DNA of 31,614 nucleotides. It comes from a virus (lineage: Duplodnaviria; Heunggongvirae; Uroviricota; Caudoviricetes). Within the stretch, counting starts at the first letter, position 1, and each line of letters opens with the position of its first letter. Shown one piece after another: positions 12,373 to 31,614 of the stretch. The position numbers and the translations under genes are program-made. The stretch lies in the IMG/VR virus record IMGVR_UViG_2579778529_000009, positions 1 to 31,614 of that record; one strand, given 5' to 3'. The notes under the pieces were generated by a model. It saw nothing but the letters and a program-made list of their open reading frames with translations, did no database searches and was not told the DNA's origin.

Positions 12373-12735
12373 ACCCGCTCCAGAATGTTTTAAACATGCA
12401 TCTTGCAAACAACTTTAGGCAAACGGTGTCAGTGATGAACAAAAAACAATCAAGATCGACACCATGAAAATAAAACAGCTGTAATATCAATTAATTATAG
12501 TGGTGGTGATGACGGATAAAATTTCAAAAACTAGCCTTTTTCCGCGACGCTCCCGCCCCGTGGCAAGGCCACCCCACCGGGAGGACCCATGAAAAATGAG
12601 AGAAATTATCATTTATGCTCAATTAAACATCAGCATTATCGCAGCCCCTCACTGAAGGACTGCTGTAATGCTGATTGTTCAACATCAAAAAACCCAATCT
12701 GTTGCAAGTTATAAAAGCAACAAACGACATTGCGC

Positions 12736-12752
12736 GTTAAGATTTTCTTAAT
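12736..12752 (+). promoter_or_regulatory. PmrA(BasR)-box-like direct repeat GTTAAG-N5-CTTAAT upstream of ais-like gene
   Basis: Direct repeat of YTTAAK-like half-sites separated by 5 nt, about 55-70 nt upstream of ATG 12805; matches the PmrA box architecture known for chromosomal ais/pmrG. Confidence 0.35.
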
Positions 12753-12804
12753 ATTTAAGAAATATATTTTTTAATCTCATTTATTTTTGCAAAAGACTTT
12801 TCAT

Positions 12805-13380
12805 ATGCAGCGTCGAGAAATAAAGAAAATTACTTATTTAATCACTTTGATTTTAACTACTCTTTTGTTTGTTTATTTTTTAAGAACACCCACCACAATC
12901 AATATGAAACAGGCGCATAAAATAAATCAACAACACCAGACAATTTTCCTTATCCGTCACGGTGAACGATGTGACAGAAGCAAAAATGCATGTCTCTCAA
13001 GCAATAAAGGAATTACCGTCAATGGTGCCATTAAAGCTCATGATTATGGAAAAATATTTAGCAATACTTTCCCGTCATTCAGCCTTTACTCCACGGATAC
13101 CATACGGACAATGCAGACAGCCTGTTTTTTCTCTGGAGGAAAAGCAGCCTCCCGGATACCGTTGGCTGCAACATGCGGACTTGATGCTGCAAAGGACATA
13201 CTCAAATTGTCATCCGATAATAAAACTACCGTTATATTCACCCATAATCATTGCCTGACACAAATAGCAAAAAAAATGAAATGGTGGAAGTTAAAGCCAG
13301 AATATCTTGAAACACTGGTTCTTCATATCGAAAACAATCGTCTCATTCTTGACGGAAAACTGACTCACGATAAAGCGTAA
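12805..13380 (+). CDS. Ais/PmrG-like histidine phosphatase (LPS core heptose(II)-phosphate phosphatase homologue) with N-terminal signal/anchor; lysogenic-conversion cargo
   Basis: RHGERCDRS (RHG catalytic motif of histidine phosphatase superfamily), CLSSNKGITV, LYSTDTIRT, VIFTHNHCL, KPEYLETLVLHIE...LDG all parallel recalled E. coli Ais; hydrophobic N-terminus; AT-rich; opposite strand to late genes in the bor-equivalent slot. Confidence 0.75.
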   Translation: MQRREIKKITYLITLILTTLLFVYFLRTPTTINMKQAHKINQQHQTIFLIRHGERCDRSKNACLSSNKGITVNGAIKAHDYGKIFSNTFPSFSLYSTDTIRTMQTACFFSGGKAASRIPLAATCGLDAAKDILKLSSDNKTTVIFTHNHCLTQIAKKMKWWKLKPEYLETLVLHIENNRLILDGKLTHDKA

Positions 13381-13416
13381 CAATCATTCAAAGAGTCAAC
13401 ATATTTTCTGCATTAA

Positions 13417-13445
13417 CCCCGAACAGTTCCTCTGCCGGGGTTTTG
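13417..13445 (+). terminator. Intrinsic terminator after ais-like gene
   Basis: CCCCG-N14-CGGGG hairpin followed by TTTTG; between convergent ais-like gene and endolysin. Confidence 0.5.
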
Positions 13446-13451
13446 TATTAG

Positions 13452-13829
13452 TTATCGCCTCAACTGAAAATGCGGTCCGTCTTTCAGGCTGGTCCACTCC
13501 CCGCCCCATTCGATGGCAGTTCCCAGCTCTGCGGCAGCCTGCTTAAATGCCTGCGCGATTTTCTCGTACAGAGGCCAGTCCCATGACACCTGGCTGCCAA
13601 CCCAGGCCACAACATCCACCGCATCACCGGTCAGGTGGCGGCTGTTCATGGTCTGGCTCTTGCCTTCTGCAACCAGCTGTTTCTGGCGTTCTTTCGTGCG
13701 CAGGCCTTCCGTAATACCGAAATCAACCTCCGTCAGCTCCAGCGCACGGCGAACGACAGCAACCAGCTGTGGTTTAACGCCCTCCAGATTTTTCTCGCTC
13801 CGACGACTGAATCTGAATTTACCCGACAT
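13452..13829 (-). CDS. Endolysin, peptidase M15 (zinc D-Ala-D-Ala carboxypeptidase-like) family
   Basis: SRHLTGDAVDV (H-x6-D) and C-terminal GPHFQL His typical of M15 endolysins; GAGGTG upstream of ATG 13829; follows holin genes. Confidence 0.8.
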   Translation of the reverse strand: MSGKFRFSRRSEKNLEGVKPQLVAVVRRALELTEVDFGITEGLRTKERQKQLVAEGKSQTMNSRHLTGDAVDVVAWVGSQVSWDWPLYEKIAQAFKQAAAELGTAIEWGGEWTSLKDGPHFQLRR

Positions 13830-14947: not shown

Positions 14948-15022
<75 letters not shown>

Positions 15023-15439: not shown

Positions 15440-16183
15440 TTATTCTTGAGCGGAGCCAGAACTCATCTCACTGAATGCAGCCATCCTGTAACCTTCCGGG
15501 GTGACCCCAAAATAACGCCTGAATACACTGATAAAATAAGATGTATTATTATAGCCACACTGCACAGCGATTCTGTTGATGGCACAGCTATATTGATGCA
15601 ACAGCATTGCTGCCATTCTCATTCTCTCCGTAAGCAACAACTCACTGAAACATGTGCCTTCTTCTTTCAGTCTTTTTTTTAACAAACTTTCACTCATACA
15701 TAACCGTGATGACACATCTCGCAGAGTCCAGTTTGCTGCAATGTCTGTATGAAACAACGCACCAAGCCTGCCGCTGATAGTACTGATACACGCGGTCATA
15801 AACGACGAAAACATTTTATCTGATGAAAAAAACGCCAGACACGAAAAGGAAAGCATTTCCGCTAAATTGTCCGTATGAATCTTTTCCTCATAAAGATAAT
15901 CAATCAGGATGCCCATCAATTCTGGCCTGGGAAAACTCATGCAAAGATATCGTGGCATTTTCCGGACTAAAACAACATCCTGTTTTACCCCACTACGCAA
16001 CAGGTAACGGCTAATTGTCGATTCACTGAGACTTATACGCCGAAAACATTCAGAAAAGGGCAATAACGGTCCAGCCCCTCCCCTGACAAGAAGTGCACTA
16101 CCACTTTCCAGAGAGAGTACTTTTCCTTCGAAGAGCACAACAAACGGGGAATGAACAAAAATAACAGAACAGGCCTCATTCAT
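15440..16183 (-). CDS. AraC-family transcriptional regulator (GadX/YdeO/AppY-like), prophage cargo
   Basis: C-terminal AraC-type double HTH (WTLRDVSSRLCMSESLLKKRLKEE...INRIAVQCGYNNTSYFISVFRRYFGVTP); ATG 16183 with AGGGA upstream (track ORF extends to 16291); AT-rich. Confidence 0.8.
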   Translation of the reverse strand: MNEACSVIFVHSPFVVLFEGKVLSLESGSALLVRGGAGPLLPFSECFRRISLSESTISRYLLRSGVKQDVVLVRKMPRYLCMSFPRPELMGILIDYLYEEKIHTDNLAEMLSFSCLAFFSSDKMFSSFMTACISTISGRLGALFHTDIAANWTLRDVSSRLCMSESLLKKRLKEEGTCFSELLLTERMRMAAMLLHQYSCAINRIAVQCGYNNTSYFISVFRRYFGVTPEGYRMAAFSEMSSGSAQE

Positions 16184-16460
16184 ATCAATATCCCTGACAT
16201 TACTGGTCGCAAGATAAGTATATATCACTTTACAAAAATGCAAGCCGTGAGCCCCGAATTCACGACCACCAGCGTGTTTACTGTACTGCACCAGGTTTAC
16301 AGGTACAAAAAACCGCTCGACGGCGGGTTTAAGCTGTGTGGCGAAGTAACCACTCTTAACAGATTAAGATAAAATTTGCGGACCGCGGTAATTTTTTTTG
16401 CTAAATTAAAGCCATATAAAAAAAGATCCATAAGAAATTATTAGTATACTAAGGTTTAAC

Positions 16461-17402
16461 ATGGCTACTATTGCGCAATCAAAGAAACAAAAAAAACTTA
16501 AAATTGGTTTTTACACCAGCAGTTCTGGGACTATCCGCAGCCATTCAGTTGCTAAGCAAGCAATTGAAAATCTGTATAATACTTGCGTAACCGTTACGAA
16601 TAATCATTTTGATACCATCTATAGAAATAAAAAGTTAAAAATAGCTTTTATAAATAAAGATACAAAAGCTAAATATTTCTTCGGCTACATGTCATGCTCA
16701 CGAGAAGAGTATCTCCTTCCTTATATTGGTGATGAATACTGGAATGAGCACAACATACCACTAGATGATAAAAAATACATAGTCGAAAGAACCTATTTTT
16801 TATATTATTACGATAGTGATATTTTAATATTAACTCAAAATCATCTTGGGCCGAAAGAATCGGATTTAGCTTATCTGCTTTACAGCCAGAGTGGTAATCC
16901 TGGAAATAACTTTTCATTCCAAGCCATCTGGAAAAAAGAGAGCGTCAAAGAGCTACTTGAAACAGGAAGTACTTTGAGAAGTTGTGATATTGTCCTGGCT
17001 GCTCCCAGGAACTTTGATGCAACAAATTACCAGCTAAATAGTTCATTTTCTAAGGAACTGGTAAATATGATGGTAGGGCTGGGTGGAACACGTCTCAAGT
17101 TAAATCTAAGGGGACGTGCATCAGGGAGAGTAAAAGTCAAAGGTTATTTATCAGATCTCGTTAAGGATGGTATTAAAGAACTCCTTGAAAAAATGCCGGG
17201 AATTGTAAAAAAAGCGGCAGTAACACAGCCCAAAAATACCGTTGAACAAAGTCTTCTTGATCAGGTACTCATTTCAGAAAAAAACATATATACCGTTAAT
17301 GGTTATGGCACTGATAGTGATGTTCTGCAAGCCATGATTTCTGCTAAAATTGATAACAATGAATACCTTAAGCAATACGATATCAGCAAAAAGAAGGTAT
17401 AG
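16461..17402 (+). CDS. Hypothetical 313-aa soluble protein; candidate RexA-like sensor component of a two-gene abortive-infection/exclusion module
   Basis: AT-rich; AAGG RBS 6 nt upstream; N-terminal KIGFYTSSSG and internal LGPKESDLAYLL resemble recalled lambda RexA motifs (GFYATYRS, GPTTSDLTDFL); 3-nt gap to downstream membrane gene. Confidence 0.5.
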   Translation: MATIAQSKKQKKLKIGFYTSSSGTIRSHSVAKQAIENLYNTCVTVTNNHFDTIYRNKKLKIAFINKDTKAKYFFGYMSCSREEYLLPYIGDEYWNEHNIPLDDKKYIVERTYFLYYYDSDILILTQNHLGPKESDLAYLLYSQSGNPGNNFSFQAIWKKESVKELLETGSTLRSCDIVLAAPRNFDATNYQLNSSFSKELVNMMVGLGGTRLKLNLRGRASGRVKVKGYLSDLVKDGIKELLEKMPGIVKKAAVTQPKNTVEQSLLDQVLISEKNIYTVNGYGTDSDVLQAMISAKIDNNEYLKQYDISKKKV

Positions 17403-17405
17403 GAT

Positions 17406-17849
17406 ATGTTATTGAAATACTTAAGAAACCTGATTGTAAGTGTTTTTTGCACCTTGTTCCTACTGAGGTATATCCCTCAGATGGGGCATGCTGACATACT
17501 TACAGCCTCCGGGGTTATTTCAACTGTATCCGGTATTTTATTTGGTTTTATTTTAGCCACAATATCAATTTTTAGTGCTGCTAGCGAAAACTCAAATGGA
17601 ATAATAAAAGCATTAAAAAACAACAACATACTTCAATTTATTATTGTAAATCTATTAACCGCAGGTGCATCTTTAATTACGGCATGCGTTATTGCTTTGA
17701 TAGCAATGTTTGCCAATGAAAAGACATTGTTACATGGAGAAAAAATAGAATTTATTTTAATTATCGAATCTTTATCTCTTCTTATCATTTCAGTAATAAC
17801 TTTTGCCTTTACATGGAGAAAAGTAAACTGGATACTCCCCCACATTTAA
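17406..17849 (+). CDS. 147-aa four-helix membrane protein; candidate RexB-like effector
   Basis: Four hydrophobic segments (about 8-20, 33-58, 75-102, 117-137); LFLLRYIPQ resembles recalled lambda RexB LLFRHYIPG; size matches RexB (144 aa); translationally coupled to upstream gene. Confidence 0.5.
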   Translation: MLLKYLRNLIVSVFCTLFLLRYIPQMGHADILTASGVISTVSGILFGFILATISIFSAASENSNGIIKALKNNNILQFIIVNLLTAGASLITACVIALIAMFANEKTLLHGEKIEFILIIESLSLLIISVITFAFTWRKVNWILPHI

Positions 17850-17872
17850 AAAGGGCAGAAATGCCCTTTTTT
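17850..17872. terminator. Bidirectional intrinsic terminator between convergent Rex-like operon and Q
   Basis: AAAGGGCA-GAAA-TGCCCTTT hairpin flanked by A-run on one side and T-run on the other, between stop 17849 (+) and stop 17873 (-). Confidence 0.6.
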
Positions 17873-18235
17873 CTACTCCATTTCAAGTTTAACATCCAGC
17901 ATTGAAAGGCATCCATCAATAAACCCTTCAGCCATCTGTATCTCTATACGTATCAATTTCTCATCTTTTTTGCGAGCTCTTGCAAGCTTTCTTTTCGAGA
18001 TGCCATACAGGTAATGGGCCACAATCAAAGAATGCTCGTACGGTTTTCGCTTTTTAAGAAGAGCAAGACAACCTTCAATAATTAATGCATCACTATCTGA
18101 ACAAGCCTGACGTGTTTTGCTTGTATAGGGAAGAAGCCCTTTAAACCCAGCAGCTATAGGAGAATAGTCTACTCCTGAACTATCACTCGCCGCCCATGCT
18201 CCCCAACGATCCAGAACCATTTGAATATCACGCAT
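17873..18235 (-). CDS. Late-gene antiterminator Q (QuuD-like family)
   Basis: MRDIQMVLDRWGAWAA...IAAGFKGL...IIEGCLALLKK...QMAEGFIDGCLSMLDVKLEME closely parallels recalled E. coli K-12 QuuD; start taken at internal ATG 18235. Confidence 0.85.
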   Translation of the reverse strand: MRDIQMVLDRWGAWAASDSSGVDYSPIAAGFKGLLPYTSKTRQACSDSDALIIEGCLALLKKRKPYEHSLIVAHYLYGISKRKLARARKKDEKLIRIEIQMAEGFIDGCLSMLDVKLEME

Positions 18236-18252
18236 CAACTTTCTCCACAAAA

Positions 18253-19248
18253 TCAGGCCAGCACGCCAGTTGCCAGCGCACGATCGATAAAACGAAATAT
18301 CAGCTCCAGCTGGGAGCCATACCTCTCTTCAAATGCCACGGTATCCGCATGCAGCTCGTCGTGATGCTTTCTGCACAAAGGCAACACAAAAAGGTCATGC
18401 GCTTTTGTTCCCATTCCACCCTGACCGTAACCTATCAGGTGGTGGGGATCATCAGCGGGCTTTCCACAACATGCACACGGCTGTGTCTTAACCCAGCGCG
18501 TGTACTTTTCATTAACCCAGCGGCGACGTTTTGGGCGTAACATAAAAGACTCCGGCGACTCCGGATCCACTTTCAGCGCCAGCACCTTTTTCGCCTTATC
18601 CTGGATGATGCTGGTGGCAGGAACCGAAGGCACAAGGTCACTTTCCCGGGTGACAGACGGCACAACAGGCTTCGGTAATCTCAGTGCCTTACGGGCTGCA
18701 CTTTCCGGTAAGGCATCCGCCAGGTCATTACGAATCAGCCACCAGCACAGTTCCGGCATTGTCACAACGTGACTGTCATCAAAACCGAGATCCCGACGCA
18801 CAACAGACAACACCCAGCGGGCACAGTTATCCGTTGCCATTGATTCCAGCCGTTCCGTGAACTGATCGCGCAGCTGGTTATCGCAGTGCCAGCACAGACG
18901 GATTGCACCCGGAGCGTGTCGCATTGTGGTCATGTTCTCGCTGTGCCAGTCGGAATGAGGCCACTGGCAGCCTTTTTTACGAAGTAACCAGCTTTCAAGA
19001 CATTCCACGCCACCAGCACGACGGATCACTGCCTCATTGCGGAACACGGCCCGAACGGCAGGATCATCCGCCAGCGGTTGTGACGCCGCGGGAACGGCAC
19101 CACTGGCGAAAGATGAATAATGCTCCGGCTCAGGCTCCAGCAGGACACGCCCCTGCATAAACAGGGGCATCAGCTCTGAACCGGGCCTGAACAATACGAT
19201 CCCCATACGCGGGGCAATTTCAGGGGTCAGTAGTGCTCTCACGGTCAC
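18253..19248 (-). CDS. DUF968-family protein with C-terminal Cys/His (HNH-like) motif
   Basis: 331 aa; C-terminal CACCGK...DPHHL...CRKHHDELH; typical nin-region gene upstream of Q in lambdoid prophages. Confidence 0.55.
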   Translation of the reverse strand: MTVRALLTPEIAPRMGIVLFRPGSELMPLFMQGRVLLEPEPEHYSSFASGAVPAASQPLADDPAVRAVFRNEAVIRRAGGVECLESWLLRKKGCQWPHSDWHSENMTTMRHAPGAIRLCWHCDNQLRDQFTERLESMATDNCARWVLSVVRRDLGFDDSHVVTMPELCWWLIRNDLADALPESAARKALRLPKPVVPSVTRESDLVPSVPATSIIQDKAKKVLALKVDPESPESFMLRPKRRRWVNEKYTRWVKTQPCACCGKPADDPHHLIGYGQGGMGTKAHDLFVLPLCRKHHDELHADTVAFEERYGSQLELIFRFIDRALATGVLA

Positions 19249-19249
19249 C

Positions 19250-20047
19250 TCAATGAACGGTATCGAGCAGCTTTAACAGCTCAGGGAATCGGGATTCGAA
19301 GAAATGCGGCTGCGTCTCGCGCGGATTTGCGGGACTGGTGATGTTCTTGCCGAACATGCAGCCTTTCGCTGTCAGCGACCAGAATTTTTTGATGTTGTTA
19401 ATCGCGGTACGGCTGTATCGTTCGCGTTGTTCAACGATCCCCAGCTTCGCCATCTGGTGATATGCCTGATTAGCCGTCAGGCGGATACCATACTGTTTCA
19501 GCAGTGCACTCAGCGACAGCGTAGGGCGACTTGAGCCATCAGGCGCGTCAGCAGGAGCATCAATGGCATAGCGCGGTGCCAGATTCGGTAAGCCAACAGC
19601 CTCCTGGAGTTTCTGACAGGCACTAAGCACAGATGAGTTAGACAGATTTAACTCCCGACGCATAAAGTCCAGCAGAATCACACCAGCCTGCATCTTGTCA
19701 GCAGCCTGCCCGGATAATTTTTCCGGTATGCTGGTTACCATGTCAAAAGTACGGATCACCTTCAGATGGAATGACGGGCTAATCCACATTGCATAGGCAT
19801 ACACCAGTTCCTTGCAGACATACGTTCCCTGGTTATTTCCACCACGAATGACATTAACTGGCGCTATATTGACCGAGTTGCAAATCTGCAACTCGCTTAT
19901 TAAGCGTTCAGTTTGCTCATTGCGGAGCCAGAATGCGGGCTTATGCTTATCCAGAGAACCAGCAGCCCTGTGCAGATCGTTCAGGCTGTAACGACCATAA
20001 GCATCACGACGAACTTCAATACCATCAATAACCATCAGATTATTCAT
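19250..20047 (-). CDS. KilA-N domain protein (antirepressor-like)
   Basis: N-terminal IDGIEVRRDAYGRYSLNDLHRAAG pattern typical of KilA-N domains. Confidence 0.65.
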   Translation of the reverse strand: MNNLMVIDGIEVRRDAYGRYSLNDLHRAAGSLDKHKPAFWLRNEQTERLISELQICNSVNIAPVNVIRGGNNQGTYVCKELVYAYAMWISPSFHLKVIRTFDMVTSIPEKLSGQAADKMQAGVILLDFMRRELNLSNSSVLSACQKLQEAVGLPNLAPRYAIDAPADAPDGSSRPTLSLSALLKQYGIRLTANQAYHQMAKLGIVEQRERYSRTAINNIKKFWSLTAKGCMFGKNITSPANPRETQPHFFESRFPELLKLLDTVH

Positions 20048-25005: not shown

Positions 25006-25698
25006 ATGAACATAGGAAACCGAGTCAGACAACTTCGCCAGGCGAAGAACATGAAAATAGCCGATCTCGCTGAAGCAATAGGAGTGGATGCGGCGAATAT
25101 CTCACGCCTGGAAACAGGTAAGCAGAAACAATTCACTGAACAAGCCCTGAGTAATATTGCCAGGAGCTTAGGTGTTGATATTGCTGATCTCTTTACCTCA
25201 GACTTCAAAAGTAATACTGTATGCAAAAACAGTATTAGTGAGGATGTTGCGCAGGTGAAGGATGTATTCCGTATTGAAATGCTGGATGTCAGTGCCAGTG
25301 CGGGAAATGGCCTTATCCAGGGCGGTGATGTCATTGATGTGATTCATGCCATTGAATACAGAACTGATAATGCTGTATCGATGTTTGGCGGACGGCCAGC
25401 CAATCACATTAAAGTTATCAACGTTCGTGGGGACAGTATGTGTCCAACCATTGAGCCAGGAGATCTCATCTTCGTTGATGTCAGTATCAATCAGTTTGAT
25501 GGAGATGGTATCTATGTATTTGGTTTTGATGATAAAATTTATGTCAAACGACTGCAAATGATACCTGACAAACTACTGGTGATTTCTGATAACCAGATTT
25601 ACCGTGAATGGGGAATTACCAGCGAAAATGAACACCGGTTTATGGTCTTTGGAAAGGTCTTAATCAGCCAGTCACAAACCCTTAAGCGACACAATTAA
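25006..25698 (+). CDS. CI-like repressor (HTH XRE + S24 LexA-like autopeptidase)
   Basis: N-terminal HTH (NMKIADLAEAIGVDAANISRLETGK); C-terminal S24 domain with Ser in VRGDSM and Lys in YVKRL. Confidence 0.9.
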   Translation: MNIGNRVRQLRQAKNMKIADLAEAIGVDAANISRLETGKQKQFTEQALSNIARSLGVDIADLFTSDFKSNTVCKNSISEDVAQVKDVFRIEMLDVSASAGNGLIQGGDVIDVIHAIEYRTDNAVSMFGGRPANHIKVINVRGDSMCPTIEPGDLIFVDVSINQFDGDGIYVFGFDDKIYVKRLQMIPDKLLVISDNQIYREWGITSENEHRFMVFGKVLISQSQTLKRHN

Positions 25699-30390: not shown

Positions 30391-31614
30391 TCAGGTAGAT
30401 TCTGGGCCAGTACAAGTAACGATCGATTCAACTCTCTCCCACCATGCCTGATATGCTTTACGCTGTTCTTCTAGATAATCGCTCTTGTCATAAACCTGCC
30501 AAACCCCTGGCAGTTTATGGCCGAGCATTATTTCTGCAATATGAGGAGCAGTAAGATCAGAAAAGTTTGTTCGTGCTGTTCGCCTCAAATCATGAAGAGA
30601 CCAATGAGGGAATTGATGCCCCAAACGCCTCCATGCGTACTGCATTAAATTGTAAGGCAGCGACTGCAATGATGTTCGACCAACGGGTTCCCTGCTTCCT
30701 TCCTTAGTAAAAAGCATATCGGAACCATTGTTCATAGAGATAGCGTTCTTTATAAGCTCCTCCACCGGTTCAATAATGGGCCTCTTTAGCGGTTCGCCTG
30801 TTATCTCTCCAGTCTTATGTCGTTCTGGTGGTACAGTCCATACCTTATTAATGAAATCAAAATCGCCCACCCTGGCAGTAATTAGCTCTGAACTACGGCA
30901 GCCAAAATGCAGCAATAGCTTAATGAAGGCCCGGTATTTAGGAACCATTCGAGAACCATCGATCGCAGAATAAAGGATTTTAATTTCATCATGTGTCAGA
31001 AACCGTTTCTTCTGACCTTTACGGATATCCATATCTTTACCCGTGATATCCGACAGCGGGCGAGTTTCAATGAGCTTTCTCTTATACGCCCAGACATGGG
31101 CCTGCTTTGCGTTAATTAGCAATCGGTCTGCTATTGCTGGAGTCTTAGTGCTAAGAGGCTCCAGGACTTCTAACCAATCATGCAATGTAGCTGCATCGTG
31201 AGGGATATTCCCGATTTTAGAGAACAGGTGCAGCTCAAACGAGCGGAGTATCTGTTCAGAACCTTTTTTATTTTTTACACAATATGCTTCATACCAGGCA
31301 CGGATCACAGACTCTACCGTCATGGCTTCAGTAGCTTTTCGTTTTTCAGCCTGCTTGACCAATCGTGGATTACGGTTTGACTCAAGTTCACCACGGAGAC
31401 GGATAACTTCTTCTCTGGCCTCTTTTAATCCAGTTGCCGGGTAAGTTCCGATATCAAGACGCTCACCTTTCCCTGCCCATTGATAACGATATTGGAACAC
31501 TACGCGACCTTTCGGTGATACTCTGACAGACAGACCATCACGATCGGATTTAACCAAAACCTTATCACGTTCCTTTCCAACGACTGAACGCAACCACGCA
31601 TCAGACAACGCCAT
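30391..31614 (-). CDS. int: Tyrosine integrase, P4/CP4-57 (IntA-like) family
   Basis: 407 aa; N-terminal arm-binding DUF4102-like region (GLSVRVSPKGRVVFQYRYQWAGK); catalytic HDLRRT and C-terminal Tyr (VYDKSDYLEEQR); start codon is the last 3 nt of the window. Confidence 0.9.
   Translation of the reverse strand: MALSDAWLRSVVGKERDKVLVKSDRDGLSVRVSPKGRVVFQYRYQWAGKGERLDIGTYPATGLKEAREEVIRLRGELESNRNPRLVKQAEKRKATEAMTVESVIRAWYEAYCVKNKKGSEQILRSFELHLFSKIGNIPHDAATLHDWLEVLEPLSTKTPAIADRLLINAKQAHVWAYKRKLIETRPLSDITGKDMDIRKGQKKRFLTHDEIKILYSAIDGSRMVPKYRAFIKLLLHFGCRSSELITARVGDFDFINKVWTVPPERHKTGEITGEPLKRPIIEPVEELIKNAISMNNGSDMLFTKEGSREPVGRTSLQSLPYNLMQYAWRRLGHQFPHWSLHDLRRTARTNFSDLTAPHIAEIMLGHKLPGVWQVYDKSDYLEEQRKAYQAWWERVESIVTCTGPEST

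Follow-up and report, generated by a model that had tools for sequence, protein, structure and literature searches.

Layout of the cassette

We consider here a 31,614-nt stretch of viral DNA (IMG/VR record IMGVR_UViG_2579778529_000009, Caudoviricetes; the whole stretch is called the window) and, within it, two adjacent genes, A and B, that lie beside the antitermination gene Q of an E. coli prophage and that we compare with rexA and rexB of phage lambda. An earlier note, made from the letters of this DNA alone, had described the pair as open reading frames (ORFs) of 313 and 147 amino acids (aa), 3 nt apart, AT-rich and antisense to the late genes, and the ORF list of the window agrees on each point (Table 1), with a GC content of 0.33-0.37 across 16.5-18.0 kb compared with about 0.50-0.58 in the flanking phage backbone. 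The other features claimed for the locus, namely a bidirectional terminator, a four-helix membrane protein as the second product and a divergent AraC-family gene, were found as well. The terminator is a AAAAGGGCA-GAAA-TGCCCTTTTTT hairpin that occupies the 23-nt gap separating the stop codons of B and Q, with folding energies of -13.4 kcal/mol on the plus strand (z-score -4.75) and -13.0 kcal/mol on the minus strand (z-score -2.64). It is absent from the list of a consensus terminator scanner, probably because the A and T runs lengthen the stem. Beyond Q comes a DUF968/HNH gene.

The 313-aa start of A is backed by the Shine-Dalgarno-like AAGG in its leader, by N-terminal conservation in homologs, by the coverage of PHROG 7651, and by the first beta-strand of the structural model (residues 9-20). 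In Escherichia coli ETEC1738 (locus L002, 6317-7102), the PGAP annotation places the start of gene A 52 codons late, giving a protein of 261 aa.

Table 1. Positions of the cassette, its parts and other features of the window
Feature	Position	Strand	Basis or remark
Moron cassette, from the leader through genes A and B to the terminator	16400..17876	+	Empty-site alignment, low GC
Leader of gene A, AT-rich, 61 nt	16400..16460	+	Shine-Dalgarno-like AAGG 6-7 nt upstream of ATG
Gene A, soluble protein of predicted RexA fold, 313 aa; DUF6731, PHROG 7651	16461..17402	+	
Gene B, four-helix inner-membrane protein, 147 aa; PHROG 8552	17406..17849	+	ORF, hydropathy, model, conserved partner
Bidirectional intrinsic terminator between convergent B and Q	17848..17871	both	Hairpin flanked by A and T runs
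Q	17873..18250	-	Pfam Phage_antitermQ, 5e-52
Conserved post-Q backbone segment	16307..16399	-	Outside the cassette; sets its left junction
AraC-family gene	15440..16291	-	YdeO/GadX type
tRNA-Gly(TCC)	14948-15022	-	
cI-like repressor gene	25006..25698		Helix-turn-helix (HTH) and S24
Second low-GC island	12500-13500		GC 0.36-0.41
AIPR gene, 595 aa	28440-30227	-	Pfam AIPR, 5.6e-43
Integrase gene	30391-31614		

Protein A and the RexA fold

A belongs to DUF6731 (PF20505; 40 bits against a cutoff of 27) and matches PHROG 7651 over its full length, and it has no match in PADLOC or NCBIfam. Its resemblance to RexA emerges from structure. An AlphaFold2 model was built from 32 homologs (predicted local distance difference test [pLDDT] 79.4, predicted TM-score 0.71), and when it was compared by Foldseek with 350,542 PDB chains, lambda RexA (8TWQ) ranked first (E 7.6e-8, probability 1.0), followed by E. 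coli RdgC and then CENP-N. RexA was the top match in two independent structure-comparison methods, each time with a wide gap before the second, and the fold neighbors reported for RexA itself by Adams et al. 2024 agree with those of A (PMC11077077). On this predicted structure, A is a two-domain alpha/beta protein with the fold common to RexA, RdgC, IML3 and CHL4 and with RexA as its nearest neighbor. Profile comparison is marginal: hhalign of A against RexA scores 26.8-27.0 (E 0.003-0.007, probability 5-10%), with reversed controls at about 14, and up to 186 columns align colinearly, centered on a GPxxSDL helix common to both proteins. The best BLASTP segment falls on the same motif, at an E of 0.26 that is not significant alone. 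Judged by its model, then, A is a remote structural homolog of RexA from a separate sequence family, and the claim of the earlier note that A is RexA-like holds at the level of structure.

It could be argued that the resemblance is convergence or an artifact of modeling, and that the pair has an unrelated function, for example, membrane-associated binding of nucleic acids or small molecules. The model comes from a 32-sequence alignment and its pLDDT is 79, the global TM-scores between A and RexA are as low as 0.34-0.37, the sequence-profile support is marginal, and B has no significant structural neighbor. However, two domains joined by a hinge would be expected to give a low global TM-score, and RexA is described as such a protein, with a mobile hinge and a reported conformational change (PMC11077077). 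Moreover, RexA comes first by two different methods and well ahead of the next match, and the remaining matches reproduce its published neighbors. Finally, the partner gene, the gene order, the size of the partner and the position of distant relatives next to cI-type repressors (see below) all agree independently, which makes the likeness hard to explain by chance. We regard convergence or artifact as distinctly improbable.

Protein B and its likeness to RexB

By hydropathy, B has four hydrophobic segments, at residues ~2-20, 37-55, 83-101 and 116-134, to be compared with 8-26, 48-66, 84-102 and 116-134 in RexB. The model of B is a helical bundle (pLDDT 84) with helices at 2-22, 28-62, 75-102 and 114-146. 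The two proteins are of nearly the same length (147 aa for B and 144 aa for RexB), have a basic loop between transmembrane (TM) helices 2 and 3, and have in common an HxDxL motif upstream of TM2; B is also a full-length match to PHROG 8552 (4.7e-63). The best BLASTP segment between B and RexB lies at L-R-(H)-Y-IP (E 0.012, again not significant alone). The two motifs that the earlier note named for RexA and RexB are real, but neither carries significance by itself. In the broad sense of a protein of about 145 aa with four TM helices encoded directly downstream of a RexA-like gene, B is of the RexB type: it is RexB-like in architecture, size, topology and position, and homology to RexB is unproven. 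The same situation has been described for RexBpp of Pseudomonas putida, likewise a four-TM protein with no HHpred match to RexB (PMC12894663).

A small multi-helix protein encoded within ~3 kb of holin and endolysin genes raises the thought of a lysis-timing or addiction module, in which B would be holin-, antiholin- or toxin-like and A its regulator or antitoxin. Indeed, overexpression of RexA-type proteins renders RexB-type proteins toxic, in the manner of a toxin-antitoxin pair (PMC12894663). Against this, no holin family in Pfam or PHROGs matches B, the prophage is already provided with two holin-family genes and an endolysin, and the same pair is found far from any lysis cassette. In the window itself, the pair and the lysis genes occupy opposite strands with other cargo in between, and the pair is closed by its own bidirectional terminator. 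A role in lysis timing or addiction seems to us very improbable indeed.

Conservation of the pair

The pairing was surveyed at 85 loci with an intact or recognizable A gene, drawn from IMG/VR, genomes and phage records. In 84 of these, a same-strand ORF of 145-157 aa (113 aa in one case) comes after A, starting usually 2-28 nt past it (range, -20 to +160), and the 43 distinct proteins encoded by these ORFs are all homologous to one another. At the single locus that lacks B, the A gene is disrupted; at another, B is present and had been overlooked by the source gene caller. The identities of A and B co-vary (Spearman 0.74, p 1.6e-9, 49 distinct pairs). Members of the family are carried as cargo by phages of E. 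coli, Klebsiella, Yersinia, Pectobacterium and Vibrio, including the cdt-converting phage cdtI.

The order also persists at great distance. An exhaustive search of 1.84 billion representatives with the A profile returned only 238 clusters (50% identity), and 123 of the 135 cluster representatives examined are DUF6731. For distant DUF6731 loci (~20% identity to A) with downstream sequence, a small ORF stands directly 3' of the gene in all six cases. Its product has two to four hydrophobic segments, at five of the loci three or four, and a hidden Markov model (HMM) of the B family picks up these partners at 35 to 10 bits. Two GC-rich viral contigs from IMG/VR (L160, 1836-4345; L162, 1795-4327) carry, on one strand, a cI-type repressor, a DUF6731 gene and a gene for a small multi-TM protein. 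The repressor has an S24 domain in both, and an HTH was detected in L162. This order mirrors cI-rexA-rexB of lambda. Thus, the succession of a RexA-like gene and a gene for a four-TM protein of ~145 aa, as proposed for the window, is a property of the whole family.

The pair is not confined to tailed prophages. The ORF finder of the A-family HMM search brought in the non-tailed Vinavirales Vibrio phage 10N.286.54.F4_PE001 (L015, 1389-2896), where a 351-aa ORF and a 150-aa B-like ORF come right after the integrase, the latter product being 31% identical to B of the window; a near-identical pair is found in a Vibrio chromosomal island. Such occurrence fits portable defense cargo.

A scan of genome contigs with lambda RexA found almost only lambda rexA at 100% identity on small contigs of unrelated assemblies (e.g., Shewanella, Kitasatospora, Capnocytophaga, Bradyrhizobium and Neobacillus). 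These are almost certainly lambda DNA contamination of the assemblies, and the usable RexA homologs were five, all from IMG/VR.

The insertion site at the junction of Q and the post-Q segment

An empty site is provided by E. coli 2014C-4135 (L155), which lacks the A/B pair and has the backbone (KilA-N, DUF968, Q) in common with the window. It aligns to window 16240-16399 and 17877-19300, with ~20 bp standing where 1477 bp (16400-17876) sit in the window, and this alignment places the cassette between the stop codon of Q and a conserved post-Q segment. In the empty site, that segment abuts Q directly. The same cassette occurs in phage cdtI (99.3% identity across window 16258-19300), which lacks the AraC gene. 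The cargo status of the cassette is shown by the empty site, the low GC, the presence in cdtI, the antisense orientation and the terminator of its own.

Parts of the post-Q segment match ~2400 E. coli genomes, mostly over just ~55 nt (window ~16307-16362). On the late strand it ends in a weak hairpin with a T-run (16312-16324; -8 kcal/mol, z-score -1.4), and it is probably the late promoter and leader (qut / tR') region. The earlier note had the pair displaced into the cargo slot between Q and the lysis genes. "Displaced" is a fair word, given that distant members follow a cI-type repressor, whereas the slot itself is another one: the pair lies between the stop codon of Q and the post-Q segment rather than in the late-operon cargo slot, which is downstream of the late promoter region.

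Divergent alleles (44-100% identity in A) are all inserted at the Q-proximal edge of this segment, immediately past the same motif, AACCACTCTTAACA...TTTTGCGGACCGCG.TAAT, and the cassette is convergent with a Q gene of the same family at 75 of the 85 loci. With this common junction and the convergent Q, the site behaves as a hotspot for allele swapping. The allele of the window is present at full length in 25 of 5426 complete E. coli genomes.

Location beside an element that controls late transcription is one argument for taking the pair as a modulator of the prophage switch or life cycle and not as a defense system. A would bind DNA non-specifically, as RexA alone or RdgC does, and bias induction, recombination or late transcription, while B would hold it at the membrane or keep it in check there, as gp31 does with gp30 in mycobacteriophage Butters. 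RdgC is indeed among the fold matches of A, and the two Butters proteins have their roles reversed (PMC12894663). However, the Vibrio chromosomal island and the Vinavirales phage have the pair without a lambdoid switch or a Q gene, and an obligatory membrane partner combined with allele swapping at a fixed hotspot is typical of defense cargo. We judge a modulator role unlikely. Each of the three alternatives (artifact, lysis or addiction, and switch) is less consistent than a Rex-type reading with the margin of RexA over RdgC, the obligatory membrane partner, the occurrence outside lambdoid phages and the insulated antisense orientation.

Neighboring genes and other cargo

As the earlier note had observed, the pair is outside the immunity region. 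The cI-like gene, ~7 kb away, is followed by a hairpin and then by operator-like repeats, with no rex genes there, and the pair beside Q is neither in the immunity region nor co-transcribed with cI. The same note had considered regulation of the pair by the adjacent AraC-family gene (NCBIfam YdeO, 143 bits, below cutoff; PHROG 1450). This gene sits past the post-Q segment, outside the cassette, adjoins the pair at 2 of the 85 loci and is absent from cdtI, and on these grounds we rejected it as a partner or regulator: it is a separate piece of cargo and unlikely to regulate A and B. The cassette is independent of cI, of AraC and of the late operon.

The AraC-family regulator resembles prophage-encoded regulators of acid resistance or type III secretion in pathogenic E. 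coli. Together with the tRNA-Gly(TCC) gene, it occupies the stretch between the post-Q segment and the holin genes, which is the late-operon cargo slot. The second low-GC island has the lysis genes on one side and terminase on the other; its counterpart in the near-identical prophage of ETEC1738 holds a gene annotated as a lipopolysaccharide core heptose(II)-phosphate phosphatase, which is moron-like cargo. Next to the integrase, in a stretch of GC 0.34-0.40, is an ORF matching the abortive-infection phage-resistance family AIPR, which on its sequence is a second candidate defense gene of this prophage.

What the pair may do

Our preferred interpretation, held with moderate confidence, is that the cassette is a divergent RexAB-type two-component module for phage exclusion (abortive infection), carried as a self-contained moron. 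By functional definition, RexA is a homodimer that binds double-stranded DNA non-specifically (size-exclusion chromatography with multi-angle light scattering and electrophoretic mobility shift assays; PMC11077077). By analogy with lambda RexAB and RexABpp, A would be a cytoplasmic sensor of the RexA fold, probably a DNA-binding dimer, that responds to some feature of an infecting phage, for example, a DNA-protein intermediate of replication or recombination. It would then activate B in the inner membrane, and B would compromise the membrane, halt growth and abort the infection. The fold of A, the four-helix topology of B, the tight and conserved operon, and the boundaries, mobility and insulation of the cassette we take as established, and the proposal builds on them.

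Several results weigh against a Rex-type function. RdgC has the RexA fold and yet is a recombination modulator, not a defense protein, and RexA of lambda acts in the lysis-lysogeny switch independently of RexB; the fold alone is no proof of defense. At the sequence level, direct membership in the RexA and RexB families was rejected. A has no match at E<=1 to the RexA models of Pfam (PF15969) or PADLOC (PDLC02339), and the Pfam model matches none of 32 close and none of 135 broad relatives of A, while the positive controls worked (lambda RexA at 1e-97 in Pfam and 9e-110 in PADLOC; a 44%-identical RexA at 2e-55). Similarly, none of seven B-family members matches Pfam RexB (PF15968) at E<=10, the PADLOC model (PDLC02340) does not recognize B, and the RexB HMM scores B proteins at no more than 10.6 bits, with lambda RexB at 8.5e-92 (Pfam) and 8.6e-61 (PADLOC). 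As for homology between B and RexB, hhalign with a narrow profile gives 17.3, equal to reversed controls, and a fold search of BFVD with the B model returned nothing below E 0.02, with RexB outside the top 50. When the profile is widened with the distant partners, the hhalign score of 22.4 (probability 6.6%) is marginally above the reversed controls (16.0-16.6). Lastly, the reading assumes expression in the lysogen, and a promoter scan found no consensus promoter in the 61-nt leader. Read by eye, a TAGTAT-like element recurs in the leaders of other cassette alleles and might serve as a promoter element.

A broader proposal can also be made. DUF6731 and its four-TM partner would be a distinct, unrecognized lineage of Rex-type systems with an effector that is not homologous to RexB, which would mean that the RexA-fold sensor had joined up with different membrane effectors on separate occasions. 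The lineage would have, in lambdoid phages of enterobacteria, a dedicated allele-swapping hotspot at the junction of Q and the late promoter, and its expression could be shut off upon induction of its own prophage, since the cassette borders on the late promoter region and early rightward transcription passes through it antisense. If true, such an automatic shut-off would be a built-in means of avoiding self-abortion. We put this forward as a tentative possibility, doubtful in its entirety.

For the RexAB-type exclusion module that we favor, it should be said which parts are new. Rex-like systems as a kind are already known, from actinophages and, since January 2026, from a P. putida prophage, where the system was found by the same structural logic. 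The phrase of the earlier note, an undescribed family of sensor plus membrane effector, is in this light only partly true: A was already classified as DUF6731, and a similarly remote RexAB-type system has been validated in P. putida (2026; PMC12894663). What is new is the link of DUF6731 and its four-TM partner to the RexA fold, which defense-finder models miss; PADLOC reports no known defense family for A, B or their divergent homologs. Neither the link nor the partner is in the Pfam or PHROG descriptions, and DUF6731 is not mentioned in the literature searched. Also new are the extent of the family across phages of Enterobacterales and Vibrio and its non-canonical, cI-independent placement at the Q junction.

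The consequences are of several kinds. DUF6731, whose Pfam and PHROG entries give no function, gains a functional hypothesis that would extend to ~238 clusters at 50% identity. In this cassette the RexA fold is uncoupled from cI and PRM, which could help to separate the defense role of RexA from its role in the lysis-lysogeny decision. The junction of Q and the post-Q segment appears to be a hotspot of defense cargo at which divergent alleles are exchanged. Moreover, comparing the conserved residues of RexA, DUF6731 and the P. putida protein could help to pin down the trigger of RexA, a question that is decades old.

Comparison with known systems

RexAB is the oldest known abortive-infection system, yet descriptions exist of only five Rex-like systems (PMC12894663). 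At the level of families, A and B are members of DUF6731 (PF20505)/PHROG 7651 and of PHROG 8552, entries that carry no function. By structure, the nearest protein after RexA is E. coli RdgC (2OWL), a clearly weaker match to A; unlike A, it is the product of a stand-alone chromosomal gene without a membrane partner, forms a toroidal dimer, acts in the control of recombination and is not found on mobile elements.

With lambda RexA/RexB (PF15969/PF15968; 8TWQ), the pair has in common that it is prophage-encoded, and the likeness extends to GPxxSDL in A and RexA and to HxDxL before TM2 in B and RexB. Lambda rexAB comes right after cI, as distant relatives of A come after a cI-type repressor. The differences are also substantial: identities are ~9-14%, the Pfam and PADLOC Rex models miss the pair, and the pair is not co-transcribed with cI, being insulated by a terminator and convergent with Q.

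Among the actinophages, the Rex-like systems Sbash gp30/gp31, CarolAnn gp44/gp43, Butters gp30/gp31 and Toast gp42 can be likened to the pair by their descriptions, as pairs of a cytoplasmic and a membrane protein that are expressed from the prophage and exclude heterotypic phages. Some of these are away from the repressor gene or inverted to it, and a location in the immunity region is not universal (PMC11077077). They differ from the pair in their hosts and sequence families, in the size of the RexA-like proteins (337-372 aa), and, for Butters, in the reversed roles.

A close parallel in kind, compared by its published description, is prophage cargo as well: RexABpp of the P. putida prophage P1 (PP_5643/PP_5644; Sci Rep 2026). 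Its proteins, RexApp (~37 kDa) and RexBpp (at least 181 aa), exceed A and B in size, and, unlike the pair of the window, RexABpp lies two genes downstream of a cI-like repressor (PMC12894663). In Rex and RexABpp, both genes are required, and overexpression of RexA leads to RexB-dependent membrane damage (PMC12894663). RexABpp is the case in which a divergent pair has been found by experiment to be a defense system, with the membrane protein as its effector (PMC12894663).

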